A stretch of DNA of 32,000 nt from Nonlabens ponticola (GCF_003966335.1 NZ_CP034549.1:810001-842000), one strand, 5' to 3'; shown: positions 902-31,320, counted from the stretch's first letter. Notes: generated by a model from the sequence alone, not told the origin. Program-made: numbers and translations.

Positions 902-3251
902 CGCGTGCCGTTTCAATTCGTTTCTTGACCACAATGGCGTCATTAAGAACAAAAGGTGCTGGAATCTCGCCTTCAGGTCTTGGATCGACGGCTAATTCTT
1001 GCGATTGCAGCAGGTCAAAACTTGCTGCATAGACTTCAAATACTGGATCTTCATCCTTTTCAAAAGTAAGTTCCATCACTAATGGTGAACCGTTAGATAC
1101 GTAGTAGGAAATCAATCGGTTACCGCGTCTGCGAGCAAATGGCTTACCGGCATCGTTTACGGGTGCGTTGACACCATTAATTTTGGCTGCATTAAATTGG
1201 AATCGCTTGTCTGCAAAAACTTCCCATCGATCAACGCGATCCTTACTATTCACCACAAGTTTGATTTGTCGTTGATCGCCTATGATGGTATCTACGGTGA
1301 TTTTGGAATTGATCGTTTTTAACGATCTGTACTCTGCTGGCGTTGTATGGCTATATCTACTGGCATATTTTGAATCGATGGTGTTGCCGTCATCTTTGCC
1401 ATCATTTTTTTCAGGATCAATTTTTTCCAGCGTCCAGTCGCTCAAATTGTGGTCATAGGTTGCCCATTGTGCTGTGTTATCATCTGCATTTGCTAGGTAG
1501 ATCAAGCTTGTTTTTTGTGGCTGTGTTGGTGAGAATTCCGCTTTCGCGAAAGCATAACCAGCAAAAGCAAATCCTACAAACAAGGAGATCAAACCTAATA
1601 TGTGCTTCTTGCGATAGTGGCCCAAAACAGGCACCAGCAATCCAAAAATGAGTACGCTGAGCACGGCTGCCACAAAGAGAATCTTCATGCCCAGCGCCAC
1701 GGGAAATCCCTTGATGAATGGAGTGAAAACAAATATCACTGGAGTAGTAAAAATCAAAAGCAACAAATAATTGGGCCTCTTTTTATAGATGTTGAGCCAT
1801 AGCATGATCAATCCAGCAAACAGCGGCACGATGAAAAAGCCTGCACCAGGCAAGTAAGCCGCTGGAATCAAACCGCTCTCACTAACGGGAAACGCTACAA
1901 TAAAACAGATGATCCATAGAAAAACGAGTGGTGCTACACTGTGGCTCGCCACTCGATCCTTATGATAAAACGCATGGTATATAAAGAATGTGATGGCAGT
2001 ACCAATCAATGCCGCCGACGCGATCCAGGCATATCCATTATAGGGAAAAATAGCCGCTTGATCGATGTAGAAATCTGCTGTGGAGATGGCCTGCCAGCCG
2101 TAGTTGACTATTAAATAGCCCAAGATCAGACTACCTAAAAATGGTACAAATCCTACCAATAAATCCTTGAAGCGTAAACGGTTTTTTCTAACACCATAAA
2201 AAATGAGAAAGATCAGAAGTATGCCAGAAACAATAATCAAAATGGGCATCCATGAAAACGGAAAGCTCACCATGTCAATTATAGGTAAAGGGAAATAAAT
2301 ATCATCTGTTCCTGCGGTAGTTTTGAGACCATCGCTTAAATCTGATTTTGCAAAATAGCTAAGCAGCGCCATCAAATAACTGCCTTGATGCGCTAGCGTA
2401 TTGCGATCCAGACGCTCATAACTATCAAGCTGTGAGTGGTAGTCAAAATGGTCACCTATAAAAGCAAAATTGAGTCCGTTGATATCACCTTTCTCACGCA
2501 TCACGGTAAGGTCTGTGTCGTTAGGTAATTTTTTGTAGATGCTGTACGCAAGTGAATTAGCCACTGGATAATTAGTTCCTGCTTCTTTAAAGGCATTGAT
2601 GATCTCCCGATTTCCACCATTCGTTTCCACGAGCATATAGCTAGGGCCGCCGCTACCGCGCGCCTCAAAATTCAAGATCATTTTTGCATCCTTCGCCCAG
2701 CGATGCTTGGTAACAAAAAGATCGGCTCCATTAAGTCCTAGCTCTTCACCATCGGTAATCAGGATGATGATGTCATTTTCTGGCTTGTTGTCGGTGAGAT
2801 ATGCTCTAATTCCCTCGATGATCGTGGCGATGCCTGATGCGGCATCACTTGCGCCCAGACTCGAGTGTGGATCGCTATCATAATGACACATGAGTACGAG
2901 AGCTTCATTGTTGTTTGCGGTTCCTTCTATACGTGCCAGGATATTTACTGGCCTAGATAGATTGCCGTATTTATCAAGGGTAAATCCAGATTGGGTTTCG
3001 GTTTTTAAACCTAGCTTTTCTAACTGCCTGATGATGTAGGTGCGGTTTTTCTCATGTGCTTTACTGCCTAGATAATGAGGTTCTTGTGATAGCTTTTTTA
3101 CATGTACCAACGCTCTTTTAGTTGACCATTCTTTCAGATCCTTTTCTTTTTCCAGTTCACCGCTAGGCGTCTGGCTTGAGAAAGCATACCAGACCATCGC
3201 AATAAGAACAAGAAATGATAAAGCTGAGGTAAAATGTGATTTAGGTCTCAT
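891..3251 (-). CDS. M28 family metallopeptidase with polytopic membrane domain (ERMP1/FXNA-like architecture)
   Basis: 786-aa ORF. It has an N-terminal TM helix and M28 motifs (MCHYDSDPHS..GASDAASG, ILITDGEELGLNGADLF). These are followed by about 9 hydrophobic helices and a C-terminal soluble domain of about 200 aa. Confidence 0.85.
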   Translation of the reverse strand: MRPKSHFTSALSFLVLIAMVWYAFSSQTPSGELEKEKDLKEWSTKRALVHVKKLSQEPHYLGSKAHEKNRTYIIRQLEKLGLKTETQSGFTLDKYGNLSRPVNILARIEGTANNNEALVLMCHYDSDPHSSLGASDAASGIATIIEGIRAYLTDNKPENDIIILITDGEELGLNGADLFVTKHRWAKDAKMILNFEARGSGGPSYMLVETNGGNREIINAFKEAGTNYPVANSLAYSIYKKLPNDTDLTVMREKGDINGLNFAFIGDHFDYHSQLDSYERLDRNTLAHQGSYLMALLSYFAKSDLSDGLKTTAGTDDIYFPLPIIDMVSFPFSWMPILIIVSGILLIFLIFYGVRKNRLRFKDLLVGFVPFLGSLILGYLIVNYGWQAISTADFYIDQAAIFPYNGYAWIASAALIGTAITFFIYHAFYHKDRVASHSVAPLVFLWIICFIVAFPVSESGLIPAAYLPGAGFFIVPLFAGLIMLWLNIYKKRPNYLLLLIFTTPVIFVFTPFIKGFPVALGMKILFVAAVLSVLIFGLLVPVLGHYRKKHILGLISLFVGFAFAGYAFAKAEFSPTQPQKTSLIYLANADDNTAQWATYDHNLSDWTLEKIDPEKNDGKDDGNTIDSKYASRYSHTTPAEYRSLKTINSKITVDTIIGDQRQIKLVVNSKDRVDRWEVFADKRFQFNAAKINGVNAPVNDAGKPFARRRGNRLISYYVSNGSPLVMELTFEKDEDPVFEVYAASFDLLQSQELAVDPRPEGEIPAPFVLNDAIVVKKRIETARDEQ
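1540..1553. repeat. GCTTTCGCGAAAGC palindrome copy 1 (inside M28 peptidase CDS)
   Basis: Exact 14-mer, read on the minus strand as A-F-A-K-A (GYAFAKAEF). Confidence 0.95.
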
Positions 3252-3264
3252 AAAATGGGTTGGT

Positions 3265-3621
3265 TTAGGTATCTCTCTTTACGATAAGGAATTTATCATC
3301 GTCCATAGCGAGATAGCCTTGATCATAAATGAAGTAATAGACAGCGCCTTTTTTGGTTGTATAAATACTGGTAAAGAAATTAAAGTCAAATCCTTTACTA
3401 AGTAGCTTGTTGCGCGTGGTCGTCGTTTTTCCCGATGGATTAATACTTTGCAATGCACGCCAGTTTTTACGCAACCTATTATTGATATTACGCATCAGTG
3501 CGCTGCTATCGCGATTGAGTTTGTTGTTTGCGACATTGCGGCAGTAATCACCGCAAAATCGCTTGTCTGCTCGACCTCTTACTTCGTCACCACATTCTGG
3601 ACACAGGCGCTTGTCTGCCAT
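3265..3621 (-). CDS. small zinc-ribbon-like hypothetical protein
   Basis: 118-aa ORF with an N-terminal CxxC-x12-CxxxC motif (CPECGDEVRGRADKRFCGDYC) followed by a basic segment. It lies 13 nt upstream of the M28 gene on the same strand. No family is recognised. Confidence 0.6.
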   Translation of the reverse strand: MADKRLCPECGDEVRGRADKRFCGDYCRNVANNKLNRDSSALMRNINNRLRKNWRALQSINPSGKTTTTRNKLLSKGFDFNFFTSIYTTKKGAVYYFIYDQGYLAMDDDKFLIVKRDT

Positions 3622-3934
3622 GAGAGTAGGCTTTGGGATAAAGGTAGTTAACTATTTACAAATGGATAATGAGTATTAAGTATTCAGTACTAAATATTAA
3701 TATGATGTAAGTAGAGGCAATAAGTTTTAGACAGAATTTACAAATCCATACAATTCCAAGGACAAAGTAATAGAAATCAGGTATCCATTATACTTAAATC
3801 TAAATCTAAACTGAGACTGAACACTGCGATTGAAAACTGCGACTATCACCACAACCAACAACCGCAAAAAAACAGGTAATGAACCAGCAACACTACCGAC
3901 TACAAAACCATTATTTTTACATAAACGCCACTCA

Positions 3935-4975
3935 ATGAAAAAAGGAGTACTTCTCGTTAATTTAGGATCGCCAGACACGCCTAATCCTAAGGATGTTAAA
4001 CGCTATCTGGATGAGTTTTTAATGGATGAACGCGTGATTGATTTGCCTTATGTTTTACGAGCAATTTTGGTTAAAGGCATTGTTCTCAACACAAGACCTA
4101 AAAAAAGTGCAGAGGCCTATTCAAAAATCTGGTGGGAAGAAGGAAGCCCGCTAATCGTACTTTCTGAAAGATTACAGGAGAAAATAGATCAGTTTACCAG
4201 CGTGCCCATAGCGCTAGCGATGAGATACGGCAGCATGTCTATTGAGAATGGATTGAAGGAATTAGACGAACAAGGTGTTGATGAGGTATTGTTGATACCG
4301 CTATATCCTCAATTTGCCATGGCTACGACTGAAACAATTGTAGTACTCGCAGAGGAGTTGCGCAAGTCTATGTTCCCGCATATGTCATTTACCCAAATGC
4401 CACCTTTTTATAATCACCCAGATTATATACGTGTGCTATCAGAGTCGATTAAAGAATCGCTGGAAGGCAAGGATTATGAACACCTGTTGTTTTCTTATCA
4501 CGGTGTACCCAAAAGACACATACGCAAAAGCGACATCACAAACGGCCATTGTAAGATGAACGGCATATGCTGTGAGACACCATCGCCAGCGCATCAATTT
4601 TGCTATAGTCATCAATGTAAAGAAGTCACCAGACTTGTGGGCGAATATCTAGAAATGGAAGATGGTACCTATTCTACCACGTTCCAATCAAGACTAGGGT
4701 TTGACCCATGGTTGACGCCATATACAGATCGTACTATCGAGCGTATGGGATTGGGTGGCACTAAAAAATTAGCAATCGCCACACCAGCCTTTGTCAGTGA
4801 TTGTCTGGAAACGCTGGAAGAAATCGCAATGGAAGGTGAAGAAATCTTCCATGAAGTAGGCGGCAAGGAATTTCACGTTATACCATGTTTGAATACGCGT
4901 GAGGATTGGGTCAAAGTCTTGAGTCGCTGGATCGATGAATGGGCACTCGCGACGCCAGTTGCGGTAGAAGCATGA
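3935..4975 (+). CDS. hemH: ferrochelatase
   Basis: The ORF opens at TTG 3830, but ferrochelatase-type sequence starts at ATG 3935 (MKKGVLLVNLGSPDTPNPKDVKRYLDEFLMDERVID). Also present are LIPLYPQFAMATTE, SYHGVPKRH and TPAFVSDCLETLEEI blocks. The upstream 35 codons are low-complexity T/N/K-rich. Confidence 0.9.
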   Translation: MKKGVLLVNLGSPDTPNPKDVKRYLDEFLMDERVIDLPYVLRAILVKGIVLNTRPKKSAEAYSKIWWEEGSPLIVLSERLQEKIDQFTSVPIALAMRYGSMSIENGLKELDEQGVDEVLLIPLYPQFAMATTETIVVLAEELRKSMFPHMSFTQMPPFYNHPDYIRVLSESIKESLEGKDYEHLLFSYHGVPKRHIRKSDITNGHCKMNGICCETPSPAHQFCYSHQCKEVTRLVGEYLEMEDGTYSTTFQSRLGFDPWLTPYTDRTIERMGLGGTKKLAIATPAFVSDCLETLEEIAMEGEEIFHEVGGKEFHVIPCLNTREDWVKVLSRWIDEWALATPVAVEA

Positions 4976-5092
4976 CCATCTCAATTGATTTGAATTCCTA
5001 ATCACAAGCATATCGCAAAGCCTATCACCAACAATAGTAAAAGCACCTTATTAGGAACTAGGAGCATACCGCGACTGCTGGTTCAGCAAGCC

Positions 5093-6405: not shown

Positions 6406-6419
6406 GCTTTCGCGAAAGC
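6406..6419. repeat. GCTTTCGCGAAAGC palindrome copy 2 (intergenic, 3' of MATE gene)
   Basis: Exact 14-mer with the left extension TTAC, 26 nt after the MATE stop. Confidence 0.95.
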
Positions 6420-11383: not shown

Positions 11384-11407
11384 CGGTCGATATATTATTC
11401 TATAAAC

Positions 11408-11444
11408 AAAAAGCTCGATCATTTAACGATCGAGCTTTTTGTTT
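11408..11444. terminator. bidirectional rho-independent terminator between convergent genes
   Basis: AAAAAGCTCGATC-ATTTAAC-GATCGAGCTTTTTGTTT. The 8-bp GC-containing stem is flanked by an A-run and a T-run, so it reads as a terminator on both strands. Confidence 0.75.
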
Positions 11445-11461
11445 ATAATTTGATTAAGGAT

Positions 11462-13826: not shown

Positions 13827-13848
13827 TTACGCTTTCGCGAAAGCGTAA
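13827..13848. repeat. extended 22-bp perfect palindrome TTACGCTTTCGCGAAAGCGTAA, copy 3 (intergenic, 3' of gdhA)
   Basis: Exact 22-bp palindrome (core 13831-13844). It starts 20 nt after the gdhA stop and lies upstream of the canonical terminator. Confidence 0.95.
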
Positions 13849-13859
13849 TCATCAACAAA

Positions 13860-13886
13860 CCCTTGATCACCATCAAGGGTTTTTTT
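13860..13886 (+). terminator. rho-independent terminator of gdhA
   Basis: CCCTTGAT-CACC-ATCAAGGG followed by a run of 7 T residues. Confidence 0.8.
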
Positions 13887-13956: not shown

Positions 13957-16224
13957 ATGAGATTAACCATATTGTTTATCATCGCCAGTAGTTTGCTGGT
14001 CACCGCACAGGATTTCACAGACTCGTGGGTAGGCTATTTTAGCTTTACAGAGATCGTAGATATAGAATCGAGCGATTCACAGATATATGCGGCCAGTGAA
14101 AATGCCGTTTTTATCTATGATATTGCCAGTCGTAAGTTTACAACGCTCACGACCGTTAATGGATTGAGCGGTGATCGCATATCCCAAATTCATTACAATG
14201 AGTTGAGCGATCAACTAGTAATAGGGTATGAGAATGGCCTGATACAAGTGCAAGAGGATGATGTGATTTTTGATGTGGTCGCTATTAGGGATAAGCAAAT
14301 TATCGATCCAGATCGCAAGAGAATCAACGAGTTTCTACAAGTAGATCAATTGCTGTACCTCGCTACAGATTTTGGGATTGCAATTTACAATCTAGAGCTT
14401 CTTGAGTTTGACGACACTTATTTTATAGGTAGCAATGGCGCTCAATTACAAGTGCAGTCCATCGATATTTTTGAAGGGTTTCTATATGCAGCTACATTAG
14501 ATAGCGGCATACGACGCGCACCTATAGATGACCCATTTCTCATTGACTTTATGAATTGGACGCGCATCAATACTGGCGATTATGATGAGGTGATTGCAGT
14601 AAATAATCAGCTCTATGCGACTGACGATGACAGGAACCTATGGCGCTTGTCTGGAGATCAATTTGTGACAACAGACACGAGATTGCCCAATCGCGCGCTA
14701 GATGCACATCTCTCAAATGGCGAGATACTTTTTACGGGAATCAATTATGCCAGTATTATTAATGAGGCTGGTGCAGTGGTAAGTACCGTAACTGATTTTG
14801 AAGATATTGCTACTCAATTTACTAGCGGTGTCCGAGTAAACGGCAACTTGTTTATTGGATCCAGTGATACTGGTCTTATAAGATCTGGAAACGGCTCTAC
14901 AGAGATAATCTTAGCTGATGGCCCATCACGCAATGATTCATTTACCTTAACAACCTTGCCCAATGAGCTTTGGGTAGGCTATGGAGATTATGATGTTTTT
15001 TACAATCCTTTCCCGCTGGATCGGGTAGGTGTAAGTCACTTGATTGAAGGTGCTTGGGAAAATTTTACCAGCGACGACGTGCAAAATATTGCTAGCATTT
15101 CAAGGATTACCATCAATCCAGTGGCGCCTGATGAGTTGTACCTCAATTCAATGAATGAAGGCGTGTTGCAGTTTGTTGATGGAGAAGCAACCACGTTATT
15201 CAATAGCAGTAATAGTAGTTTAAGCATCATTAACGGCAGTGGTTCAGGTAGGATACGTGTGCCAGCTAGTAAGTTTGATTCACAGGGTAATCTATGGGCA
15301 ATTGCCTCACAGGTTGATGACCCATTAAATAGAAGAACTTCATCCGGGCAATGGACATCTTTTGATTTAAGTGATGACTTTCCATCAGTAGCTGGATCAT
15401 CAACGACTAAGATTGATATCAATAACAATGACAATATATTTTTTGGTACCACAGGCGCAGGCCTTGTAGGTTTTAACTCCAATGAGAATCGTTATGCTCA
15501 ATTGACAGAAGGTATTCAGCAAGGTGGCTTGAGAAATAATTATGTTGGCGCGCTAAGGATCGATCAAAGTGGCCAGTTATGGATAGGATCAAATCGTGGT
15601 CTAAGAGTATTATTTAATCCTAATTCCATGTTTACCGATAACCCGGATGATGCACGACCTATCATCATAGAAGATGTCAATGGAATACCACGAGAGCTGC
15701 TCGCAGATGAAGCTCTTGTAGATATTGAAGTGGACGGCAGCAATAGAAAATGGGTTGCAACGGCCGATTCTGGAGTATTTTTATTCTCACCTACAGGTCA
15801 GGAAACCATATTCCAATTCACTAAAAACAACTCGCCACTTCCATCTAATAGTGTGAACGATATTGCCATTGACGACACTACAGGGTTGGTATATTTTGCG
15901 ACAGATAATGGATTGGTCGCTTTTAAGGGTGAGCGCAATAGTCCACCAGCAGACGATCTAGAGAATGTATTTGCTTTCCCTAATCCAGTAAGACCCAACT
16001 TTGACGGCAATGTAACCATCGATGGACTTACAGAAAGAGCACGTGTCAAGATTACAGATATCGAGGGTAATTTGGTCTTTGAAATCGTTTCTCAAGGTGG
16101 TAGCGTGCAATGGGATACCACTAGTTTTGACGGTCGCAAGGTTGCATCTGGTGTGTATATGTTACTTATAAGCGCACGTGATAATGTAGAGACAACAGTC
16201 TCAAAACTTATGATTATTAGATAA
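13957..16224 (+). CDS. beta-propeller (Reg_prop repeat) protein with T9SS C-terminal sorting domain; PorZ-like (tentative)
   Basis: The ORF opens at TTG 13933; I prefer ATG 13957 with a signal peptide (MRLTILFIIASSLLVTAQ). Two-component-regulator-propeller-type motifs recur (FGIAIYN, TGLIRSG, AGLVGFN, NRGLRVL, SGVFLFS, NGLVAFKG). The C-terminus resembles a T9SS CTD (FPNPVRP..VKITDIEGNLVF..SGVYMLLI..KLMIIR). Size and architecture match PorZ as I remember it. Confidence 0.8.
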   Translation: MRLTILFIIASSLLVTAQDFTDSWVGYFSFTEIVDIESSDSQIYAASENAVFIYDIASRKFTTLTTVNGLSGDRISQIHYNELSDQLVIGYENGLIQVQEDDVIFDVVAIRDKQIIDPDRKRINEFLQVDQLLYLATDFGIAIYNLELLEFDDTYFIGSNGAQLQVQSIDIFEGFLYAATLDSGIRRAPIDDPFLIDFMNWTRINTGDYDEVIAVNNQLYATDDDRNLWRLSGDQFVTTDTRLPNRALDAHLSNGEILFTGINYASIINEAGAVVSTVTDFEDIATQFTSGVRVNGNLFIGSSDTGLIRSGNGSTEIILADGPSRNDSFTLTTLPNELWVGYGDYDVFYNPFPLDRVGVSHLIEGAWENFTSDDVQNIASISRITINPVAPDELYLNSMNEGVLQFVDGEATTLFNSSNSSLSIINGSGSGRIRVPASKFDSQGNLWAIASQVDDPLNRRTSSGQWTSFDLSDDFPSVAGSSTTKIDINNNDNIFFGTTGAGLVGFNSNENRYAQLTEGIQQGGLRNNYVGALRIDQSGQLWIGSNRGLRVLFNPNSMFTDNPDDARPIIIEDVNGIPRELLADEALVDIEVDGSNRKWVATADSGVFLFSPTGQETIFQFTKNNSPLPSNSVNDIAIDDTTGLVYFATDNGLVAFKGERNSPPADDLENVFAFPNPVRPNFDGNVTIDGLTERARVKITDIEGNLVFEIVSQGGSVQWDTTSFDGRKVASGVYMLLISARDNVETTVSKLMIIR

Positions 16225-16947: not shown

Positions 16948-19355
16948 GATATAATTTTACTTGCCTTTTCCTATTTCTTTTTGCCTTTATTTCCCAAGCA
17001 CAGCAAGTGCAGGTGGTGAATAATGAGACTGGCGAGCCTATTCCCAATGTAGCTGTTTACAATAAAGAGAAAACAAAGTCTGCCATTGCAGACTTTGATG
17101 GATTTGTAGATCTCATAAAATTTGATGATAAAGAGACGATCTTTTTCCAGACCATGTCTTTCAAAACCTTAAAAAGTAGTAAGCGAGATATTCTTGCTCA
17201 TGGTGATCTGGTCAAGCTCACTCCGGTGTCACAAGGCATGAATCCAGTGGTGATATCAGTCTCTAAGTTTGAGCAGCGCAAACAGGACATACCGCAAAAA
17301 ATAATTTCTACCAGCGCTCAAGAAATTAAATTTAACAACCCACAAACCAGTGCAGATTTACTGCAGCAAACAGGTCAGGTGTATGTGCAAAAATCACAGC
17401 AAGGTGGTGGTAGCCCATTGATACGTGGTTTTTCAACAAATAGATTGCTCATTACGGTAGATGGTGTGCGCATGAATAATGCGACCTTTAGAGGTGGTAA
17501 TTTGCAAAATGTCATAAGCATCGATCCACTATGTGTCGAACGTACTGAGATTATTCTAGGTCCAGGCAGCGTTGTATATGGTAGTGATGCTATAGGTGGC
17601 GTCATGAATTTTTACACGCAGTCGCCAGTCTTTGCGACTGATAGCATCACAAACTTTGCAGGTAACGCCTTGTTACGATATGCCACCGCAAATAATGAGA
17701 ATACCGCACACCTAGATTTTAAATATGGAACGCAGCGATTTGCCAGTGCGACAAGCATCAGTTTTAATTCCTATGGCGATCTACATATGGGATCAAATGG
17801 ACCTGATGAATATTTGAGAAATCAATATGTCGTGCGCCGCGATGATGAGGATTTACTAGTAGATAATAGCGACCCACAACGCCAGATTCCTACTGGTTTT
17901 GATCAGCTCAACCTGTTGCAAAAATTCTCTTACAAGCCCAGCAGCGACTGGCAACTGGACGCAGGATTGATTTACACGCAAACCTCTGATTATAGCAGGT
18001 ATGATGCGTTGATACGCTTTCGCGAAAGCGGAAACCCCATAAGTGCCCAATGGTATTATGGACCTCAACGCTGGTTAATGCTTAATGCAAGAGCCACCCA
18101 TCGTGGTAATGGTAGATTATATGATAAAGCGATCATCACACAGGCTTATCAAAAATTCAATGAGAGCCGCAACAATCGTGATTTTCAAGATGTAGAGTTA
18201 TTTGAGAATGATGAGCAGGTAGATGCTCTTACAACGGCTATAGATTTTGAACGACGCAATCGAGAGAATAATGTCCTATTCTATGGAGCAGAATACGTGT
18301 ATAACAAGGTAGGCAGTGAAGGCAGTATTTTTGACATAGAAACAGGTAATAGACGCGCAGCTGCCAGTAGATATCCAGATGGATCAACATGGGAATCGCT
18401 AGCTGCTTATGTGAGTTATCAATGGAGAATCGAGGAAAATCTCACCTTACAATCTGGAGCACGATACAACCACATCTGGATTGACGCTCAATTTGATGAT
18501 GAATTCTTTGACTTTCCTTTTAGTGAAGCGACTGTAAATACAGGCGCACTTACCGGTGCGATAGGTGCAACTTATCTGCCTGATCCATCATGGGAACTGC
18601 GAGCAAATTTGAGTACAGCCTTTCGTGCGCCTAATATTGATGATATAGGTAAAATCTTTGATCCTAGTCCTGGCACGGTAGTCGTTCCCAATCCAGATGT
18701 GGATTCTGAGTATTCTTATAATACAGAGCTAGGTGTTAAAAAACGAGTAGGCGATCAATTGACTATTGAGGTCGCGGGATATTATACGTTGCTAGATGAT
18801 GCATTGGTGGCTCGTGATTTTGAGCTCAATGGTGAGGATCAAATCATCTATCAAGGAGAATTGAGTCAGGTGCAAGCCATTCAAAATGCAGAGCGTGCGA
18901 TGATCTACGGCGTTGAGATAGGAATGGATTACAAACTCAATGATGAGTGGAATCTGTACGGTCATTACACTTGGCTGGATGGCGAGCAGGAAGAAGAAGA
19001 CGGCACCACGGTTGCCGTGCGTCACGTGGCACCAGCTTTTGGCGATTTTCATGTAGTTTATGATCACGATAGATTTAAGGCAGATGCCTTTGTTTTATTC
19101 AACGGTCAGTTTGATTTTAATGAATTGGCGCCTAGCCAGCAGGATAGGCCGTATTTGTATGCGCAGGATGAGAATGGCAATCCATTCTCGCCATCATGGT
19201 ACACGCTTAATTTGCGATCTAGATATGAGATTAACAAGGCATTGAGTGTTAATGCTACCCTTGAAAATATCACAGACCAGCGCTATCGCACCTATTCATC
19301 TGGAATAGCAGCGGCTGGTAGAAACTTAATTTTGGCACTTGATTATTCTTTTTAA
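16944..19355 (+). CDS. TonB-dependent receptor (CarboxypepD_reg N-domain; plug motif reminiscent of heme/hemoglobin-type receptors)
   Basis: TTG start overlapping the recO stop (TTGA). It has a signal peptide, then a plug region (GGGSPLIRGFSTNRLLITVDGVRMNN..GPGSVVYGSDAIGG), a long beta-barrel and a terminal F. The substrate class is a low-confidence recollection. Confidence 0.85.
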   Translation: MRYNFTCLFLFLFAFISQAQQVQVVNNETGEPIPNVAVYNKEKTKSAIADFDGFVDLIKFDDKETIFFQTMSFKTLKSSKRDILAHGDLVKLTPVSQGMNPVVISVSKFEQRKQDIPQKIISTSAQEIKFNNPQTSADLLQQTGQVYVQKSQQGGGSPLIRGFSTNRLLITVDGVRMNNATFRGGNLQNVISIDPLCVERTEIILGPGSVVYGSDAIGGVMNFYTQSPVFATDSITNFAGNALLRYATANNENTAHLDFKYGTQRFASATSISFNSYGDLHMGSNGPDEYLRNQYVVRRDDEDLLVDNSDPQRQIPTGFDQLNLLQKFSYKPSSDWQLDAGLIYTQTSDYSRYDALIRFRESGNPISAQWYYGPQRWLMLNARATHRGNGRLYDKAIITQAYQKFNESRNNRDFQDVELFENDEQVDALTTAIDFERRNRENNVLFYGAEYVYNKVGSEGSIFDIETGNRRAAASRYPDGSTWESLAAYVSYQWRIEENLTLQSGARYNHIWIDAQFDDEFFDFPFSEATVNTGALTGAIGATYLPDPSWELRANLSTAFRAPNIDDIGKIFDPSPGTVVVPNPDVDSEYSYNTELGVKKRVGDQLTIEVAGYYTLLDDALVARDFELNGEDQIIYQGELSQVQAIQNAERAMIYGVEIGMDYKLNDEWNLYGHYTWLDGEQEEEDGTTVAVRHVAPAFGDFHVVYDHDRFKADAFVLFNGQFDFNELAPSQQDRPYLYAQDENGNPFSPSWYTLNLRSRYEINKALSVNATLENITDQRYRTYSSGIAAAGRNLILALDYSF
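18016..18029. repeat. GCTTTCGCGAAAGC palindrome copy 4 (inside TBDR CDS)
   Basis: Exact 14-mer, read in a different frame as R-F-R-E-S (LIRFRESGN). Confidence 0.95.
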
Positions 19356-20025: not shown

Positions 20026-20850
20026 ATGTTAAAAAAGATCGCGAGTATTCTCAATTTGATCAGCATCATTGTGCTGATTGCTTGGAACGGATATGCCAAT
20101 TCTGGAAATTTCAACGGTAATACGGTAGGCGATCTAAGTGCAGAATATAGCAACCTGTTCACGCCAGCGAGTTATGCCTTTGCAATATGGGGTTTGATTT
20201 TCTTGATGCTATTGGTTTTTGGGGTGTATGGTGTGTATTACGCTTTCGCGAAAGCTACCTCACTCAAACCGAGAGCCTATCGCACCAACTTTGTGGTATC
20301 AACAGCGCCGTGGTTCTTACTGGCAAATATCTGTTGTACGGCATGGGTAGGCTTCTGGCTGGAAGAAATGATAGGAATATCGGTACTACTCATGGTCGGT
20401 ATACTGGTTTTCTTGCTTTTGTGTGTGCGCAGCATTGATATGGAATTATGGGATGCGCCGTTTCCACTAATCGCATTTGTGTGGTGGCCGCTGTGCCTTT
20501 ATACAGGCTGGATAAGTGTCGCAATTATTGCAAACGTCGCGAGTTACCTTAATGAAATCATGGAATTTACTAGAGATCAGGAAATTTATATCACCATCGC
20601 GATGGTAGTGGTTGCTGCTGTAATTAATATTCTCATGGTGTGGTATCGCAACATGCGCGAGTACGCTAGTGTAGGCGTGTGGGCACTTGTCGCCATTTAT
20701 GTCCGTCACAAAGATGAGGTAGAATTGATAAGCTATGTAGCGATAGCGGCAGCCGCGATTCTATTAGTGAATATCATGTGGCATGGATACCTCAATCGTC
20801 ACACAAATCCATTTATCAAATACAAACAGTATAGAGCGAGTAAAGCTTAA
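20026..20850 (+). CDS. tryptophan-rich polytopic membrane protein (TspO/MBR-related, tentative)
   Basis: ORF 19963..20850; I prefer ATG 20026 (MLKKIASILNLISIIVLIAW), which removes the overlap with pdeM. It has about 7-8 hydrophobic helices, is W-rich, and contains LFTPASYAFAIWGLIFL. Confidence 0.65.
   Translation: MLKKIASILNLISIIVLIAWNGYANSGNFNGNTVGDLSAEYSNLFTPASYAFAIWGLIFLMLLVFGVYGVYYAFAKATSLKPRAYRTNFVVSTAPWFLLANICCTAWVGFWLEEMIGISVLLMVGILVFLLLCVRSIDMELWDAPFPLIAFVWWPLCLYTGWISVAIIANVASYLNEIMEFTRDQEIYITIAMVVVAAVINILMVWYRNMREYASVGVWALVAIYVRHKDEVELISYVAIAAAAILLVNIMWHGYLNRHTNPFIKYKQYRASKA
20242..20255. repeat. GCTTTCGCGAAAGC palindrome copy 5 (inside Trp-rich membrane protein CDS)
   Basis: Exact 14-mer with the left extension TTAC, read as YYAFAKATS. 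Confidence 0.95.
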
Positions 20851-22285: not shown

Positions 22286-25200
22286 TTGGCTTACACAGAT
22301 ATTCTCCAGTCATATTCTCATTTACCACAAACCCAACAATTGCTGGATCATCTAGCGCAGGATCACGGTGCGATTCAAGTAGCTGGTCTCACTGGTAGTG
22401 CGTTATCGATTGAGTTGCAAACCTTATTTGAGCAAAGCGACAAGCCTTTTTTACTTATATGCAACGACAAGGAAGAAGCCGCCTATTATCTCAACGATCT
22501 AGAAAAAATGATAGGCGAGGAACGTGTGCTGTTTTATCCAGGAAGCTATCGACGACCTTACCAGATTGAGGAAACAGATAATGCCAATGTCCTTTTAAGG
22601 GCTGAGGTGCTCAACCGAATCAATTCAAAACGCAAGCCAGCGGTTATTGTTACATATCCAGACGCATTGTTTGAAAAGGTAGTCACGCGCAAGGAATTGG
22701 AGAAAAACACGCTCAAGATTGCCGTTGGTGATCAAATAAGCATTGATTTTGCAAACGAGGTGCTGTTTGAATATGCCTTCAAGCGCGTCGATTTTGTGAC
22801 AGAACCTGGTGAATTCTCATTGCGCGGTGGTATCCTCGATGTGTTCTCATTTTCTAATGAAGAGCCTTATCGTATAGAGTTTTTTGGCAACGAGATTGAT
22901 AGCATACGCATCTTTGATGTGGAGACACAACTGTCTAAAGATCAGATTAAAAAGATATCCATAATTCCTAATGTGGAGAACAAGAAGTCTGATGAGCGAC
23001 GTGAGAGTTTCTTGAAATACTTGTCAAGTAAGACGGTTGTATTTGCCCAACATCTTGATTTGATGTATGCTCGTGTTGATTCGCTTTTCGCGAAAGCGGA
23101 ACAAGCCTACCAAAAACTTGATGGTGGCATTAAGCAATTAACTCCAGACGAGATTTTCTGCAAGTCGGCCTTGCTTAAGAAGCAATTGGAGAAATACACG
23201 ACAGTTGAATTTACCGGTAGCGACCCAGCTGTGCGATTCAGCACCAGCCCGCAACCATCTTTCAATAAGCAGTTTGATATATTGGTGGACACGCTGCGAG
23301 AAAATGAGAAACGTGGATTCAAGACTTATCTGCTGTGCGGTACTGCACAGCAAGCAAAGCGTTTCAAGGACATTTTTGACGACATGAATGCGCAGGTTTC
23401 CTATGAAACGGTGACCATGACATTGTATAAAGGATTTGTAGATGCAGATTTAAAAATCGCTTGTTACACAGATCATGAGATTTTTGATCGTTATCATAAG
23501 TTCCACTTGAAGAATGGCTATGCCAAAAAGCAAGCCATCACGCTCAAGGAACTCAATACGCTGGTCATAGGTGATTATGTTACGCATATTGATCACGGTA
23601 TAGGGAAATTTGGTGGACTCCAAAAGATCGATGTCAACGGCAAGATGCAGGAAGCTATCAAGCTGTTTTATGGCGAGCGCGATATTTTATATGTCTCGAT
23701 TCACTCGCTACATAAGATCACGAGATATGCTGGTAAAGACGGCAAGACGCCTAAGATCTACAAGCTAGGTAGTCCAGCCTGGAAAAAACTAAAAGCCAAA
23801 ACCAAGACTAAGGTCAAGCAAATTGCTTTTGACCTGATCAAATTATATGCAAAGCGACGCGCTCGCAAAGGGTTTCAATACGAGCCAGATGGTTATTTGC
23901 AAAATGAGCTAGAGGCTAGTTTTATTTATGAGGATACACCAGATCAAAGTGCAGCGACACAAGATGTAAAAAATGACATGGAAAGCGATCGTCCCATGGA
24001 TCGATTGGTCTGTGGTGATGTAGGATTCGGTAAGACTGAAGTTGCCATACGTGCTGCGTTTAAGGCTGCGGTGAGTGGCAAACAAGTTGCTGTGCTCGTG
24101 CCAACAACTGTTCTAGCTTTTCAGCATGCCAAGACTTTTAAGGAGCGCCTTGCCGACATGCCAGTTACGGTAGATTATTTGAATCGTTTCCGTACGGCAA
24201 AGGAGCGTCGCACGGTACTTGAAGGACTTGAAAACGGAACCATCGATATCGTGATAGGCACTCACCAGCTGGTCAATAAGTCGGTTAAGTTTAAAGACAT
24301 AGGACTGTTGATTATCGATGAGGAGCAAAAATTTGGAGTTGCAGTAAAAGATAAGCTCAAAACCTTAAAGGAAAACATTGACACGCTCACGCTTACTGCT
24401 ACGCCTATACCGCGTACGCTGCAATTCTCATTAATGGCCGCACGTGATTTGAGCGTTATAAAAACGCCACCACCCAATCGTCACCCTATTGAGTCTCGCG
24501 TGGTACGATTTTCTGAAGAAGTGATACGTGACGCGGTAAGCTATGAGATTTCCCGTGGTGGTCAGGTATTTTTTGTCCACAATCGTATTGAGAACATTAA
24601 GGAAGTAGCAGGTATGATCCAGCGATCTGTTCCAGATGCTAAGGTAGGTATAGGTCACGGTCAGATGGATGGAAAAAAGCTGGAAGAATTGATGCTGGCT
24701 TTTATGAATAATGAGTTTGACGTACTGGTAAGTACCACCATCATTGAGAGTGGTCTTGACGTGCCTAATGCGAATACCATCTTCATCAATAACGCCAATA
24801 ACTTTGGACTATCAGACCTGCATCAAATGCGTGGTCGAGTGGGCCGCAGTAATAAAAAGGCCTTTTGTTATTTCATCACGCCACCATATGATATGATGAC
24901 TGATGATGCTCGCAAAAGAATCCAAGCAATTGAGAATTTCTCTGAGTTGGGTAGTGGTTTCAACATCGCCATGAAAGATCTTGAGATACGTGGTGCTGGA
25001 GATATTTTGGGTGGCGAGCAAAGTGGTTTCATGAATGAGATAGGATTTGATACCTATCAAAAAATCCTGAGCGAAGCCATAGAAGAGCTCAAGGAAAATG
25101 AGTTCAAAGAACTCTATCCTACGGATGAGATCAAGACCAAACATGTAAGCGATGTCACGATTGATACAGATTTTGAATTATTGTTCCCAGATGATTACAT

Positions 25201-25630: not shown

Positions 25631-25709
25631 TAGATGGCTATGAAGCCACTTGCAGTAATCTTATTATTCCTATGGGCTGTTATAAAAGATAAAGTCGTTT
25701 GAGTTTTTG

Positions 25710-25723
25710 CTTTCGCGAAAGCG
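25710..25723. repeat. GCTTTCGCGAAAGC palindrome copy 7 (intergenic, between convergent mfd and membrane-protein genes)
   Basis: Exact 14-mer with the right extension GTAA, 13 nt from the minus-strand gene's stop. Confidence 0.95.
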
Positions 25724-26217: not shown

Positions 26218-26220
26218 GCC

Positions 26221-26258: not shown

Positions 26259-26282
26259 AAATATGATAATAAGTGCTTAATT

Positions 26283-29200
26283 CTAGTTGAATATATATCT
26301 CAATCCAACTTGCATTTGCCATCTTGAAGATCTAACACCACCGTCGTCAAAACGCTCTAAACCATCTTCAAAATCTGGATCAAAAGTAAATTCTGGATCT
26401 GGACCATCTTCTTCAACGTTCAATATTTGTATGTTACCAAATCGGTTGTTGATGAACTTCTGGCGACCCCAATCCTTGTTTAAGAAGTTGAAGAAGTTGA
26501 AAATATCAACCGTTGCTTGAAGCGTATGTTCCTTCTCATTCACGTTAATTGTGAAATCTTGAAGTAACTTGAAGTCAACAATATGATTCCATGGTCCTCT
26601 AAATCCGTTACGCTCTGCATATGAACCTCTTCGGTCATTTAAATAGTCATTGCTCTCTATATATGCATCAAGTGCTTCCCATTGCTCATCTGCGCTTACA
26701 TCTCCATCATCTACAAGATTAATTTCACTCTGGTTGCGTGGAATATAGATTAAGGCATTATCACCAGTATCGTCACCTAGCAAACTGAAGCTTCTAGGAT
26801 CATTATAGGTAAAGCTTAATGGAGCACCTTCTTGACCATTATAGAAGAAGCTGAAGGTCGTCTTGATGTTATCATTCCACGTCAAACGGTACGAAGCATT
26901 TGCGGAAACTCTATGTCCAAATGCAAACTGTGAAGGCTGTAGTTGAGGAGCATTCTTACCATTCACCGTTGGATTAAATCTCCACTGTGAACTGTTTTGA
27001 GAAGATGTTGCGTCAAATATAGATTCTCCGTCACTGTATGCGTAAGAAACCTGAGCGGCAAACCCTTTGTCAAAAGGCTTCGTTAACGTGAAAGAAGCGC
27101 TCTGTGAATAACCTTCATTAGTATTGGTGGCCAGATAAATACCAGTATAATCTCCATCAATTCTCGCTCTAGAGTAAAATGGTCTTTCATCTGCACCATT
27201 AAGGTTTCCTATAGGTCCTCTAATATTTAGATTCTCATAGGATATATTATTGATATTGTCATTATAGATATAATCTACTGTAGCTGTAAGACCCCAAATA
27301 TTCAGTTTCTGATCTATACCTATGCTGTATTTTGCCACTTGTGGCAACATGAAATCTGGCGCAAATATGTTGATATCACCACCCAATTGACCACTTCCAG
27401 GTGCAGCACCTGTACCAATCGGCTGGTTCGTTGGATCTGGATTGAATCGTACGCCACCTTCAAAATCATCTTCATTTACACCACCAATGGCAAGACCATT
27501 ATTATTGTAAGCACCACCTGGCCATACTAGCGGCATTCTAGAAGTAAAGATACCTATACCACCACGTATTTGCGTTTGACGCTCTCCACCTACATTCCAG
27601 TTAAAACCTAATCTAGGAGAAACGTGTATCTGACTTTTTATTTGTCTACCTACTCTTGCACCTTGCAAGTCTTTACCTTCTGCTTCTAGAAGGGCAACTG
27701 TGTTGGTGTTGAACGATTCGTTAACGGTTCCTTGCTCAAAGAATGGAATGTCAAATCTAACACCATAAGTCAATCTGAAGTTGTCAGTTAAACTCCAGTT
27801 GTCTTGAGCATAAACACCTAGTTGCGATAAGTTGAATTTTGCAGCAGCATCAGTAATGTCATCACCTGAAGTTCCAGCAGGATCTAATAACGAATAAGAG
27901 TAGCTGTAATCTTGTGACAATACATCATCGTCAAGGTCATCATTGAAATACGTATTGAAGTCTTCTAATGAATCAAAACCATAGTTACCAAAGTTTTCTC
28001 TCACAAATACATTTCGTACACTGTAGTTTTCAAAATTTGCTCCTAAGGTAATGTTGTGTGCTCCTGATTGTATCTCAAAATTGTTTGTAACAGTAAATAC
28101 GTCTTGATCAAGAATATTACCCGTAGAAAAACGCTCAGAACCAAACGTGATATTACCATCACCATCTTCAATGCTTACTCTAGGAAACGGATTTCCTATA
28201 GGATCACGGTCATCTCTAACAATTGTATTAGTAACAATGAGGTTATTAGAAAGGTTTGAACCGTTTGTAGTATTCCATTCAAGTGTGCTAGAATTTGTAG
28301 TTGAGGGAAAAAATTGTCCACCATTAGAGAAATTGATGTTTCCAGCATTACTCGTTGAAGGATCAACAGATTCACCATTTACATAATTGTGCTTAAAGAT
28401 GATGGTATTCTTCTCATTAAGGTTGTAGTCAAGTTTAATAGTAAAACGCTCTGTTTCACGAGTACGATCAACATTACCAAAAGATCCAGGATCATAACCA
28501 AATCTGTCGATAAGATTATTCCTTAGTGTCGTAATATCTTCTAAAGAACTATCACCAACATATAATGCTGGGTCAAAAATTCTTGGAGTGTTTTCTCTCT
28601 CAACTTCAGCATTCAAGAAGAAAAACAATTTGTTTTTAATGATGGGCCCACCTATTCGCGCACCATACAAATTATTAGAGAATTCATCTAGGCGTTCGCG
28701 ATCTGGAGCAGGATCATCACCATTTCGATCATCAATTTGGTCTATGATTGCTTGTGGCGTTTTACCAGCTAATTTTTCATTCCTATGAAAGTAATAAGCA
28801 CTACCACTAAATTCATTAGTTCCTGAACGAGTGATAGCATTGATCGCACCACCAGTAAAACCTGATTGACGTACATCATAAGGTGCAATGTTTACAGAGA
28901 ATGACTCAATGGCATCAAGTGATATTGGGTTGATACCTATTTGACCACCGTTAGTACCTGAGTCAGATAGTCCAAAAACGTCATTATTTACAGCACCATC
29001 AATAAGAAGGCTGTTATACCTGTTATTTTGACCAGCAATCGAGATAGATCCATCCTCGCCAACTGTAGCTTGTGGTGTCTTTCTTAAAATGTCTGCAATA
29101 CTTCGGGTAACTGTAGGTAGAGTGTTTATCTCTCTTGTTGAGATATTAGTTTCTGATCCAGTTTTACCACTATCAAAAATCCCATCACGAGTAGCTCTGA

Positions 29201-29564
29201 TAACTATCTCATCCAGCGCATTGGTAGATTCTAGAAGTGTAGCGTCAATTTGTTCTGATTGACCCAAGTCTAGATTGATATTAGACAATTCTAGGGTCTC
29301 TTTCCCAACATAAGAAATGTTGATAGTATAAGGACCACCTACACGCATGTTGTTGATACGGTAGTAACCTTCAATGTCAGTTACAGATGCGTAGCGCGTA
29401 CCTGTTGGTGTGTGTACTGCGATAATCGTTGCGCCCAGTAGTGGCTCATTATCGGCTTCTAAGACACGACCGTTGATGGAAGATGTGGTTACACCTTGTC
29501 CCAACATAGTCATGGAGCTTGAGAGAATTCCTATAAATAAGAATAGCTGTAAAAGTTTGTTCAT
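26283..29564 (-). CDS. TonB-dependent receptor, large CarboxypepD_reg-type (about 1090 aa)
   Basis: ORF 26283..29624; I prefer ATG 29564 with a signal peptide (MNKLLQLFLFIGILSSSMTMLGQ). It has a CarboxypepD_reg-like domain (INGRVLEADNEPLLGATIIAV..GYYRINN), a plug and a long barrel. No SusD-like partner is adjacent. Confidence 0.85.
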   Translation of the reverse strand: MNKLLQLFLFIGILSSSMTMLGQGVTTSSINGRVLEADNEPLLGATIIAVHTPTGTRYASVTDIEGYYRINNMRVGGPYTINISYVGKETLELSNINLDLGQSEQIDATLLESTNALDEIVIRATRDGIFDSGKTGSETNISTREINTLPTVTRSIADILRKTPQATVGEDGSISIAGQNNRYNSLLIDGAVNNDVFGLSDSGTNGGQIGINPISLDAIESFSVNIAPYDVRQSGFTGGAINAITRSGTNEFSGSAYYFHRNEKLAGKTPQAIIDQIDDRNGDDPAPDRERLDEFSNNLYGARIGGPIIKNKLFFFLNAEVERENTPRIFDPALYVGDSSLEDITTLRNNLIDRFGYDPGSFGNVDRTRETERFTIKLDYNLNEKNTIIFKHNYVNGESVDPSTSNAGNINFSNGGQFFPSTTNSSTLEWNTTNGSNLSNNLIVTNTIVRDDRDPIGNPFPRVSIEDGDGNITFGSERFSTGNILDQDVFTVTNNFEIQSGAHNITLGANFENYSVRNVFVRENFGNYGFDSLEDFNTYFNDDLDDDVLSQDYSYSYSLLDPAGTSGDDITDAAAKFNLSQLGVYAQDNWSLTDNFRLTYGVRFDIPFFEQGTVNESFNTNTVALLEAEGKDLQGARVGRQIKSQIHVSPRLGFNWNVGGERQTQIRGGIGIFTSRMPLVWPGGAYNNNGLAIGGVNEDDFEGGVRFNPDPTNQPIGTGAAPGSGQLGGDINIFAPDFMLPQVAKYSIGIDQKLNIWGLTATVDYIYNDNINNISYENLNIRGPIGNLNGADERPFYSRARIDGDYTGIYLATNTNEGYSQSASFTLTKPFDKGFAAQVSYAYSDGESIFDATSSQNSSQWRFNPTVNGKNAPQLQPSQFAFGHRVSANASYRLTWNDNIKTTFSFFYNGQEGAPLSFTYNDPRSFSLLGDDTGDNALIYIPRNQSEINLVDDGDVSADEQWEALDAYIESNDYLNDRRGSYAERNGFRGPWNHIVDFKLLQDFTINVNEKEHTLQATVDIFNFFNFLNKDWGRQKFINNRFGNIQILNVEEDGPDPEFTFDPDFEDGLERFDDGGVRSSRWQMQVGLRYIFN

Positions 29565-29592
29565 CGTTAAAATGATTTGAGTTTTGATGCTG

Positions 29593-29600
29593 CAAAAGTA
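29593..29600 (-). promoter_or_regulatory. candidate -7 promoter box (TAnnTTTG)
   Basis: The minus strand reads TACTTTTG, 28 nt upstream of ATG 29564. Confidence 0.35.
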
Positions 29601-29682
29601 CTCGCTTAAAAAGCATCCCAACATTAAGCTATCATTAATTAACGCTTAACTTTTCAACTATAACTATTTGATAAATAAGATA

Positions 29683-31320
29683 TTACCTATTAACGGAATA
29701 AAACTTGTTTAACAGCGCGGTGGTTGACGCATCATGACCGTCAGACTTACTTGTCTCAATGTCATTTAAAATGGTATCTGCTAGTTTTTTTCCCAGCTCC
29801 ACGCCCCATTGATCATAGCTGTAAACGTTCCAAATAATACCTTCAACAAATATCTTGTGCTCGTACATGGCCACCAATTTTCCTAGACTCGCAGGAGTAA
29901 GCTCATCAATCATGATGGTGGTAGTAGGCCTGTTACCTGGGAACACCTTAAACGGTAACAGTTTACTTATCTCATCAGCTGTTTTGCCAGATTCTTTTAA
30001 ATCTTCACGGGCTTCCTCTCTGGTCTTTCCGTTCATGAGCGCCTCAGTCTGCGCGATAAAGTTTGCGATGAGTTTATTATGGTGATCAGGTTGTTGGTAT
30101 TTTGCTTTCGCGAAAGCTATAAAATGAGCCGGTATCAACTTTGTTCCCTGATGTATCAATTGGAAAAAAGCATGTTGCGAGTTGGTTCCTGGTTCACCCC
30201 AAACAATGTTGCCTGTTTCATAATTTATAGGAATACCATCACGAGAAATGCTCTTACCATTACTCTCCATTATAGCTTGTTGCAAGTAGGCCGGTAATTC
30301 CTTTAAGTACTGGGTGTAAGGTATGATGGCCTCGCTCTGGGCTTTAAAGAAATTGTTATACCAGATGGTGAGTAGTGCCAGTTGCACCGGTATATTATCG
30401 CGGAATTCCGCATCTTTAAAATGCTCATCCATGGCATGTGCGCCATTCAATAAATGCTGGAAATTGCTGGTGCCAACGCCCAACGCGACAGACATTCCTA
30501 CTGTGCTCCACAAGGAGAAACGGCCGCCTACCCAATCAAACATCGGGAAAATATTGTCCTGTGCCACGCCAAATTCTACCGCACGATCCACATTACTGCT
30601 CACGGCGATAAAATGCTTGCCTACTGCATCTTCATTCACTTGTTCTTTAAACCAGTTGCGTATTGTAGTAGCATTAGTCAACGTTTCCTGCGTGCCAAAA
30701 GATTTTGAAACAATCACAAACAGCGTTGTTGCTGGATCGATTTTTTTAAGGGTTTCCATCACGTGGTCACCTTCTACATTTGACACAAAGTGCAGTTTAA
30801 GATCGTTGTGATATGCCTCAAGTGCCTGGTATATCATCACGGGTCCTAGATCGCTGCCTCCTATACCTATATTGACAATAGTGTCAAACTTTTCACCATT
30901 GGCAGCGGTTATTTCACCTGTAAGTACTTGATCTACATAAGTGAACATTTTCTCACGACTGGCTTGTGCGTCTTTTACATAAGACTTAATGTTAGAATCT
31001 GCCTTTTCCAATGGCGTGCGCAATGCGGTATGCAGCACTTCACGACCTTCAGTCGAATTAATTTTTTCTCCATCAAAATATGATTGGATAGCCTCATCGA
31101 GCTTGCACTCATTTGCAAGGTCAATCAGTACCTCACGCGTAGCTGGCGTGATGAGGTTTTTAGAAAGATCTACATAAAAATCCTCAAACTCAATGGTAAA
31201 TTCCTGAGCTCTATCGGGACTATTTTTAAAGGCTTCTTTTAGATCAAACTTCTTAAGATTGTCATAGTGCGCCTTTAGGCTGTTCCATGCGTTGGTGGTA
31301 GTTGGGTCTATATTTTTCAT
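29683..31320 (-). CDS. pgi: glucose-6-phosphate isomerase
   Basis: The ORF extends to 31485, but Pgi homology begins at ATG 31320 (MKNIDPTTTNAWNSLKAHYD). Contains IGIGGSDLGP, SKSFGTQETL, GGRFSLWS and ESNGK. The ATG overlaps the upstream TGA (ATGA). Confidence 0.95.
   Translation of the reverse strand: MKNIDPTTTNAWNSLKAHYDNLKKFDLKEAFKNSPDRAQEFTIEFEDFYVDLSKNLITPATREVLIDLANECKLDEAIQSYFDGEKINSTEGREVLHTALRTPLEKADSNIKSYVKDAQASREKMFTYVDQVLTGEITAANGEKFDTIVNIGIGGSDLGPVMIYQALEAYHNDLKLHFVSNVEGDHVMETLKKIDPATTLFVIVSKSFGTQETLTNATTIRNWFKEQVNEDAVGKHFIAVSSNVDRAVEFGVAQDNIFPMFDWVGGRFSLWSTVGMSVALGVGTSNFQHLLNGAHAMDEHFKDAEFRDNIPVQLALLTIWYNNFFKAQSEAIIPYTQYLKELPAYLQQAIMESNGKSISRDGIPINYETGNIVWGEPGTNSQHAFFQLIHQGTKLIPAHFIAFAKAKYQQPDHHNKLIANFIAQTEALMNGKTREEAREDLKESGKTADEISKLLPFKVFPGNRPTTTIMIDELTPASLGKLVAMYEHKIFVEGIIWNVYSYDQWGVELGKKLADTILNDIETSKSDGHDASTTALLNKFYSVNR
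30104..30117. repeat. GCTTTCGCGAAAGC palindrome copy 8 (inside pgi CDS)
   Basis: Exact 14-mer, read on the minus strand as FIAFAKAKY. Confidence 0.95.

Follow-up and report, generated by a model that had tools for sequence, protein, structure and literature searches.

A hyper-abundant palindromic DNA word of Nonlabens, Dokdonia and their close relatives

We analysed a stretch of 32,000 nucleotides (nt) from Nonlabens ponticola (GCF_003966335.1, NZ_CP034549.1:810001-842000), hereafter the window, in which a 14-nt palindrome, GCTTTCGCGAAAGC, occurs in seven exact copies, four of them within genes and three between genes. The number expected is 0.00 in dinucleotide-preserving shuffles and 0.0001 under a dinucleotide Markov model, an over-representation of the kind that characterises highly iterated palindromes of the HIP1 type. 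Its hyper-abundance is specific to one lineage, that of Nonlabens, Dokdonia and close relatives. What is conserved is the DNA word itself, neither a peptide nor a mobile element; new copies form in place by point substitutions, and copies, once formed, are held letter-perfect over long evolutionary times.

The palindrome, its copies and its range

The eight copies in the window, one of them imperfect, are as follows (strands are those of the genes).

1540-1553: exact copy in an M28 peptidase gene (minus strand), read as GYAFAKAEF in the frame A-F-A-K-A
6406-6419: exact copy, intergenic, 26 nt past the stop codon of a MatE transporter gene
13831-13844: exact copy, intergenic, 24 nt past the stop codon of a glutamate dehydrogenase gene, extended to a 22-nt palindrome, TTACGCTTTCGCGAAAGCGTAA
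18016-18029: exact copy in a TonB-dependent receptor gene (plus strand), read as LIRFRESGN in the frame R-F-R-E-S
20242-20255: exact copy in a gene for a Trp-rich membrane protein (plus strand), read as YYAFAKATS directly after a predicted membrane helix
23082-23098: imperfect copy, CGCTTTTCGCGAAAGCG, in mfd (plus strand), read as DSLFAKAEQ in the frame L-F-A-K-A
25709-25722: exact copy, intergenic, between convergent mfd and a gene of 150 amino acids (aa), 14 nt past the stop codon of the latter
30104-30117: exact copy in pgi (minus strand), read as FIAFAKAKY in a variable segment flanked by conserved blocks

An earlier note on this DNA had reported in-frame copies in five unrelated genes, and translation confirms both the peptides and the frames; the gene identities are backed by Pfam and by homolog names, and the Pgi, TonB receptor, and M28 proteins match N. 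ponticola proteins at 100% identity. The note counted the peptide AFAKA four times, whereas it occurs three times, the fourth case (Mfd) being LFAKA. The imperfect mfd copy also contains the eighth occurrence in the window of the 8-nt core TTCGCGAA, at 23087.

A sequence logo of 142 copies has C at position -1 in 81% of them, which gives the usual 16-mer CGCTTTCGCGAAAGCG, and T is preferred at -3 and -4, with an outer consensus of approximately GATTAC; around the core there is a weak preference for (GA)TTAC...GTAA(TC). Loci are designated here by L numbers (L201, N. dokdonensis; L202, N. tegetincola; L246, a relative; L203, a Joint Genome Institute (JGI) metagenome contig). At four copies of N. 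dokdonensis (3488, 8243, 15557, and 17739), the outer flank is TCTC-core-GAGA, unlike the TTAC-core-GTAA of N. ponticola and most Dokdonia, a hint, in a small sample, of species-level "dialects" of the outer flank. Lone half-sites of the word are rare in 118 kb of clade DNA. The central hexamer TCGCGA occurs outside the word at close to the expected rate (9 versus 4.8 expected in the window; 16 in the 118 kb), which gives no signal of avoidance of an NruI-type restriction site.

The 118 kb of clade DNA were fetched via proteins, independently of the presence of the motif, and hold 25 exact copies (1 per 4.7 kb), a density from which several hundred copies are to be expected in a genome. An exact-match scan with one genome per species returned at least 120 eight-kb blocks carrying the word. 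Among the matches listed, approximately two thirds of the blocks belong to Dokdonia, Nonlabens, and uncultured Flavobacteriaceae, many with two to three copies per 8 kb, and other taxa are represented by single hits at chance level. Among loci fetched via Mfd, only the two closest relatives have the word, and the 78 loci from other Flavobacteriaceae (1.2 Mb) contain no copy. The 12-nt core was found in no paper of a literature search, and no paper ties Dokdonia or Flavobacteriaceae to such a palindrome; the word thus appears to be undescribed in the searched literature. Other Flavobacteriaceae loci have short hairpin words of their own (e.g., CCTCGAGCGGAGTCGAGAGG) and a 28-nt tandem array. All copies in the loci listed here are outside ORFs, and they look like ordinary repetitive extragenic palindromic (REP)-like elements. 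They lie as follows.

L137: 8424-8940
L153: 13415-16842
L148: 507-4226
L155: 9682-9900
L123: 197-1038

Conservation of DNA and formation of copies in place

The earlier note argued for a DNA-level object from identical codons, both gene orientations, and a second reading frame. Within the window, the identical codons follow from the search for a DNA word and prove nothing, and the identity does not extend to the last Ala, whose third base lies outside the 14-mer and varies (GCG, GCT, or GCA). Across species, however, the codons are frozen. In pgi of five species, 10.9% of the conserved degenerate codons are identical in all, whereas those of A-F-A-K are all identical and form the sole run of three or more identical codons across the gene; in mfd, the seven consecutive codons of LFAKAEQ are identical in six species against a background of 12%. 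The use of both gene orientations is uninformative, since a palindrome is its own reverse complement. The argument from the reading frame holds and can be extended to all three frames: the 144 clade copies comprise 31 outside long open reading frames (ORFs), 58 read as AFAKA, 27 as RFRES, and 28 as LSRK. The AFAKA frame is preferred by about 2:1 (chi-square P = 0.0003) but is not exclusive. Under a stricter gene model, 37% of the copies are intergenic versus 13% of the DNA.

The same conclusion is reached from the proteome. In 36,900 clade codons there are 11 AFAKA peptides (~30 per 100,000), and the word accounts for 10 of the 11. None is present in 371,000 codons of the outgroup, where the shorter AFAK is found eight times with varied codons. 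RFRES and LSRK follow the same clade-versus-outgroup pattern, and the three peptides are enriched ten- to more than hundred-fold in the clade proteome owing to the word alone. They are merely its three translations. A tryptophan 2,3-dioxygenase gene makes the point within a single site: the same variable loop is read as RFRES in N. dokdonensis (L201, 8243) and as AFAKA in N. tegetincola (L202, 8274), the frame thus changes while the DNA stays. Of the two species, N. tegetincola has the longer loop, by ~9 aa, and in L204 the loop holds no copy. A peptide motif AFAKA was accordingly rejected, on the three frames, the many intergenic copies, and its absence from the outgroup.

Comparison with motif-free orthologs of the five window genes, in which AFAKA is not kept, shows how the copies came about. 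The Pgi segment FIAFAKAKY corresponds to FIGFKKSLH of equal length in Salegentibacter and others and, in agreement with the earlier note, to a segment of the same length in Escherichia coli Pgi as well. In the M28 peptidase, AFAKAEF of the clade orthologs stands against AHFNSGF in the outgroups, and in the Trp-rich protein AFAKA stands against AFLPH (GCT TTC TTG CCG CAT) in L246, each with the same length and no gap. Many Nonlabens orthologs of the TonB receptor have RFRES, versus RLDDD in N. dokdonensis and RFRDN or RVDSD elsewhere within Nonlabens, again of equal length. The Mfd outgroups have D-x-(L/F)-(F/Y)-x-K-A-E (i.e., LFxKAE) with varied codons, whereas in the clade the x is fixed as Ala (GCG) and the codons are frozen. 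The mfd copy is imperfect because a conserved Leu stands where the perfect palindrome needs Ala. None of the five sites differs in length from its motif-free orthologs, and therefore the copies arose by substitution and not as 12-15 nt insertions. On both tests that the earlier note had set, its reading is thus supported. The ancestral DNA was already part of the way to the word, as two examples show: CTT TTT GAG AAA GCA in mfd (LFEKAE) is ~3 changes from it, and the GFKK of pgi already supplies G-TTT-AAA. New copies thus appear where the protein tolerates change and where the ancestral DNA is close to the word.

Of the two modes of origin that had been suggested, substitution or gene conversion, the former is borne out in five genes and nothing shows the latter. 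An origin by in-place substitution has also been proposed for uptake sequences. The mode of spread is less unusual than the earlier note held, as in-place substitution was already proposed for HIP1 (PMC4390886).

Two loci depart from constant length, namely the dioxygenase loop described above and a TonB receptor loop of L246 (11030-11150) that is orthologous to the window site at 18016; both are exceptions in length-variable loops. The L246 loop has an 18-aa (54-nt) net insertion beside the motif, made up of ~44-nt and ~15-nt pieces. The left half-site, CGCTTTCG, is present twice, the inserted DNA begins precisely in the middle of the palindrome, and the complete copy encodes AFAKA here in place of RFRES. 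A lineage-specific extra copy is found in L204, a locus with seven copies in 21.6 kb, at the start of pgi (10051). It lies near the Pgi N-terminus in the frame SLSRKR and stands in place of EEHYNNNQ-type sequence, in a segment that is 2 aa shorter.

Maintenance, spacing and flanks

The copies are maintained to the letter. In 727 kb we counted 162 exact copies, 15 with one mismatch, and 21 with two; in the unbiased loci alone there are 3 one-off sites versus 24-25 exact copies. The pgi copy is exact in N. dokdonensis, N. tegetincola, L122, and L204, and is common to species whose Pgi proteins are just 63-77% identical, so the sites are old and vertically inherited, and what is seen is persistence and not recent spread. 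Intergenic copies likewise keep their place while their flanks diverge. The copies downstream of MatE (6406) and glutamate dehydrogenase (13831) have orthologous exact copies in L246 at 417 and 6863, respectively, and that downstream of mfd (25709) is found in the same place in L121, L122, L201, and L202, hence in five genomes, with flanks diverged beyond alignment. Conservation at orthologous sites, synonymous positions included, therefore extends to genic and intergenic copies alike, as is typical of HIP1.

One relative stands apart. Over 21.6 kb of the metagenome contig L203, whose Pgi is 69% identical, no exact copy is present (Poisson P ~0.01). Among its orthologous sites (8265, 11207, and 15553-15650), those in pgi and the dioxygenase gene each differ from the word by a single nucleotide and the intergenic one has disappeared; the imperfect mfd copy is unchanged. 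L203 may represent a lineage that lost the word-maintaining factor, as this pattern of sequence decay suggests.

The copies are also spaced more evenly than random placement would give. Among 69 intervals measured inside loci of 8-32 kb, only 2 are shorter than 1 kb versus 18 expected (P ~0.0002), the shortest measuring 561 nt. Within the window itself, the coefficient of variation of the spacing is 0.36 (P = 0.01). Intergenic copies have the same density whether the flanking genes are co-directional, divergent, or convergent. No copy, even at up to two mismatches, occurs in the lytic Nonlabens phage P12024S (L245, 35.7 kb), where host density would give ~7.6 (P = 0.0005). Several IMG/VR contigs (L212, L241, and others) have two to three copies per 11-14 kb, and L212 encodes a phage depolymerase domain and an S49 protease; such word-bearing contigs may be prophages or host fragments.

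The flanks of the word are skewed in composition. Whichever strand is read, C is scarce (0.11 versus 0.19) and T and G are plentiful in the 20-25 nt that precede the core on its 5' side, and the 3' flank mirrors this, being G-poor and rich in A and C (in the window, e.g., 1515-1539 and 1554-1578). The skew holds in every reading frame and at intergenic copies, at all eight window copies, and in all clade loci. A search of the flanks for a secondary Chi-like word yielded no dominant k-mer, only general T/G-richness. We also looked for pairing and for relatedness among the flanks. The two arms of a copy match each other at 10.0 positions out of 30 on average versus 9.7 for the arms of other copies, i.e., there is no covariation, and apart from a few orthologous pairs no flank sequence families were found beyond a column-shuffled null. 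A 44-nt, 80% match between copies 6406 and 30104 was set aside as within chance given the skewed flank composition. Since arm covariation and flank families are lacking and half-sites are rare, the word is neither a hairpin nor a copy-and-paste element. By its sequence, it looks like a symmetric duplex site whose half-sites are independently preferred.

At -3.4 kcal/mol the core folds weakly; for the extended palindrome at 13831 the value is -10.1 kcal/mol. No T-run follows the core, the T-rich side lying upstream and the downstream side being A-rich, and a terminator scan of the window did not flag the palindrome copies. Thirteen nt past copy 13831 lies a proper terminator-like hairpin (13857-13882, AAACCCTTGATCACCATCAAGGGTTT followed by a T-run), which places this palindrome after the stop codon and ahead of the real terminator. 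A role as terminator or RNA hairpin was rejected on these grounds and on the equal density in divergent regions. Elsewhere in the window, a 23-nt inverted repeat at 11401-11447 (96% complementary, 1-nt spacer) is flagged as terminator-like, with a 20-pair stem, and is located between a Cys/Met-metabolism gene and a gene on the opposite strand.

Candidate explanations and known systems

The explanation that we favour, and hold to be probable though far from certain, is that the word belongs with HIP1 and uptake signal sequences (USS), that a symmetric factor particular to the clade recognises it in duplex form, and that selection for coverage preserves it. A dimeric protein of the clade would bind it as double-stranded DNA and recognise the half-sites separately, and selection for regular coverage of the chromosome would keep the copies as a chromosome-wide self mark. 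The mark might have its use in nucleoid organisation, in repair or recombination, or in DNA uptake; where the factor was lost in a lineage, the copies would decay.

Several points weigh against such a factor. Known palindromic sites that organise chromosomes (parS, Noc, SlmA) number far below several hundred per genome. Weak selection per site seems hard to square with letter-perfect conservation, which a drive based on repair or uptake could likewise yield. The strand-asymmetric flank composition is not predicted by simple dimer binding, and the density of the word is host-like in some IMG/VR contigs with a viral label, so that the word is not strictly confined to the core chromosome. Finally, the density and spacing rest on the 32-kb window, 8-kb blocks, and 20-kb loci.

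A neutral drive without function is the strongest competitor, although we judge it unlikely. Here, methyltransferase-linked or otherwise biased mismatch repair would convert near-matches into the word and re-correct mutants, as in Elhai's proposal of a function-less repair ratchet for HIP1, with abundance as a by-product (PMC4390886). The scarcity of short intervals fits the saturation at a characteristic spacing in that model (PMC4390886). The great excess of exact over one-off and two-off copies looks as if near-matches had been ratcheted to the exact word, new copies arose where the ancestral DNA was already similar (mfd and pgi), prophage-like contigs with the word would agree with a process to which all resident DNA is subject, and the skewed flanks could be the footprint of repair tracts. 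However, a specificity of 14-16 bp far exceeds known methyltransferase recognition sites, and we know of no such enzyme in the Nonlabens-Dokdonia clade. Outside the word, TCGCGA shows neither excess nor avoidance, and intergenic and synonymous positions are exact across species whose proteins are 63-77% identical; for HIP1, the same conservation pattern was read as selection and not as replenishment (PMC5861425).

Somewhat less likely again is a signal for DNA uptake or self-recognition of the kind known from USS and DNA uptake sequences (DUS), in which competent cells would favour DNA that bears the word, and uptake bias and recombination would spread and maintain it. The genomic footprint is that of uptake sequences: the word is clade-specific, has hundreds of exact copies in all coding frames with the best-tolerated peptide preferred, keeps to orthologous positions at even spacing, and is lacking in the lytic phage. 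Competence exists in Flavobacteriaceae, where Riemerella columbina prefers its own DNA, with no uptake sequence found there (PMC7965970). On the other side, competence of Nonlabens or Dokdonia is unreported in the literature searched. Known uptake sequences are 9-12 nt long and non-palindromic, and the density of the word is four to five times below that of USS and DUS.

A miniature mobile element inserting in frame, akin to REP elements, miniature inverted-repeat transposable elements (MITEs), or Rickettsia palindromic elements, is very improbable and already largely refuted. In favour of it, the word is palindromic and repeated exactly many times, and indels do lie beside it in the two variable loops (~9 aa in the dioxygenase; 18 aa in the L246 TonB receptor, with CGCTTTCG duplicated). 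The five window genes, however, show no change in length against their motif-free orthologs, the flanks share composition only and the arms are unpaired, the copies repel each other instead of clustering, and their sites are orthologously conserved across genera. The REP-like hairpin words of other Flavobacteriaceae, moreover, lie nearly all outside ORFs, unlike the word. Least credible of all is an RNA-level element (a terminator or mRNA hairpin) or a selected AFAKA peptide: although the three intergenic window copies lie 14-26 nt past stop codons and the extended one can fold, the core folds weakly with no T-run or arm covariation, a separate terminator follows copy 13831, the density is equal in all intergenic orientations with most copies in ORFs on either strand, and the peptide fails on frames, intergenic copies, and outgroup codons alike.

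A bolder proposal, which we put forward as speculation and rate as unlikely, is that the word serves as recognition site for an as yet undescribed clade-specific system by which the cell marks its own chromosome, either as the first sequence-specific uptake or recombination signal in Bacteroidota or as a site of recurrent nicking or cutting in its middle. Central nicking is suggested by the ~25 nt ending 3' at the centre, which are C-poor and G/T-rich on each strand, and by the L246 insertion, which lies exactly at the centre and duplicates a half-site. The polarity of the flanks is as expected from DNA that is often single-stranded (C-to-T and A-to-G deamination after a central break and 5' resection); we regard this as a lead and not as a finding.

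The function of hyper-abundant words has been an open question since HIP1, which is still unexplained, and the present word offers an independent case in another phylum. It is a HIP1-type phenomenon with novel features, as it is twice the length of HIP1, has almost no near-misses, and lies in skewed flanks. Its marine hosts (Nonlabens and Dokdonia) are culturable, 16 bp are long enough for a specific protein partner to be fished out easily, and L203, a relative that appears to have lost the system, provides a natural control. The constraint on the DNA concretely reshapes proteins (AFAKA, RFRES, and LSRK), and in this clade a short peptide that is conserved, or a codon that is frozen, is not necessarily a sign of protein function, a warning for annotation and comparative genomics. 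If a chromosome-marking system is indeed at work, it would be strong enough to rewrite protein sequence at hundreds of loci.

Among known systems, HIP1 (GCGATCGC) and the alternate cyanobacterial palindromes come closest. Like the word, they are short GC-rich palindromes, over-represented and lineage-specific, that lie within and between genes at conserved orthologous sites, with a non-random distribution (for the word, a strong deficit of short intervals in loci of 8-32 kb) and no evident role as peptide or RNA. No peptide, RNA, or expression role has been found for HIP1, and its periodic distribution suggested a link to nucleoid structure (PMC5861425); the word can be reasoned about in like manner. 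The word differs in belonging to Bacteroidota (Flavobacteriaceae) instead of cyanobacteria, in its length (14-16 nt versus 8, too long for the usual methyltransferase site), and in its strand-asymmetric flanks. It is also less dense (~1 per 4.7-5 kb versus ~1 per kb for HIP1) and has few near-misses, whereas one-off variants are common in HIP1 and are biased towards its end positions (PMC4390886).

The USS of Pasteurellaceae and DUS of Neisseriaceae also resemble the word. They occur in hundreds to thousands of exact copies and in clade-specific versions, lie in coding frames with tolerated peptides and thereby shape the proteome, arise by substitution, occupy stable and evenly spaced orthologous sites, and are scarce in foreign DNA, in all of which the word is like them; it differs in the length, symmetry, and density given above, being palindromic and 14-16 nt long. 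Their function is proven, namely binding by the uptake machinery.

REP elements, bacterial interspersed mosaic elements (BIMEs), MITEs, and Rickettsia palindromic elements share with the word that they are repeated palindromes in hundreds of copies, and the Rickettsia elements also lie in frame inside protein genes. Such elements, however, add length, share sequence over their full extent, and form hairpins; the word shows neither insertion nor paired hairpin arms nor shared full-length sequence, and its copies avoid one another. The sites of parS/ParB, Noc, SlmA, and MatP are 14-16 bp perfect palindromes with dimeric, lineage-specific readers, scattered along the chromosome and also found inside genes. 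They number ~10 to ~70 per genome and are regionally biased, whereas several hundred evenly spread copies are implied for the word. A parS- or Noc-like site proper was rejected, since the TTTC/GAAA blocks are shifted by one position and the copies are far too many.

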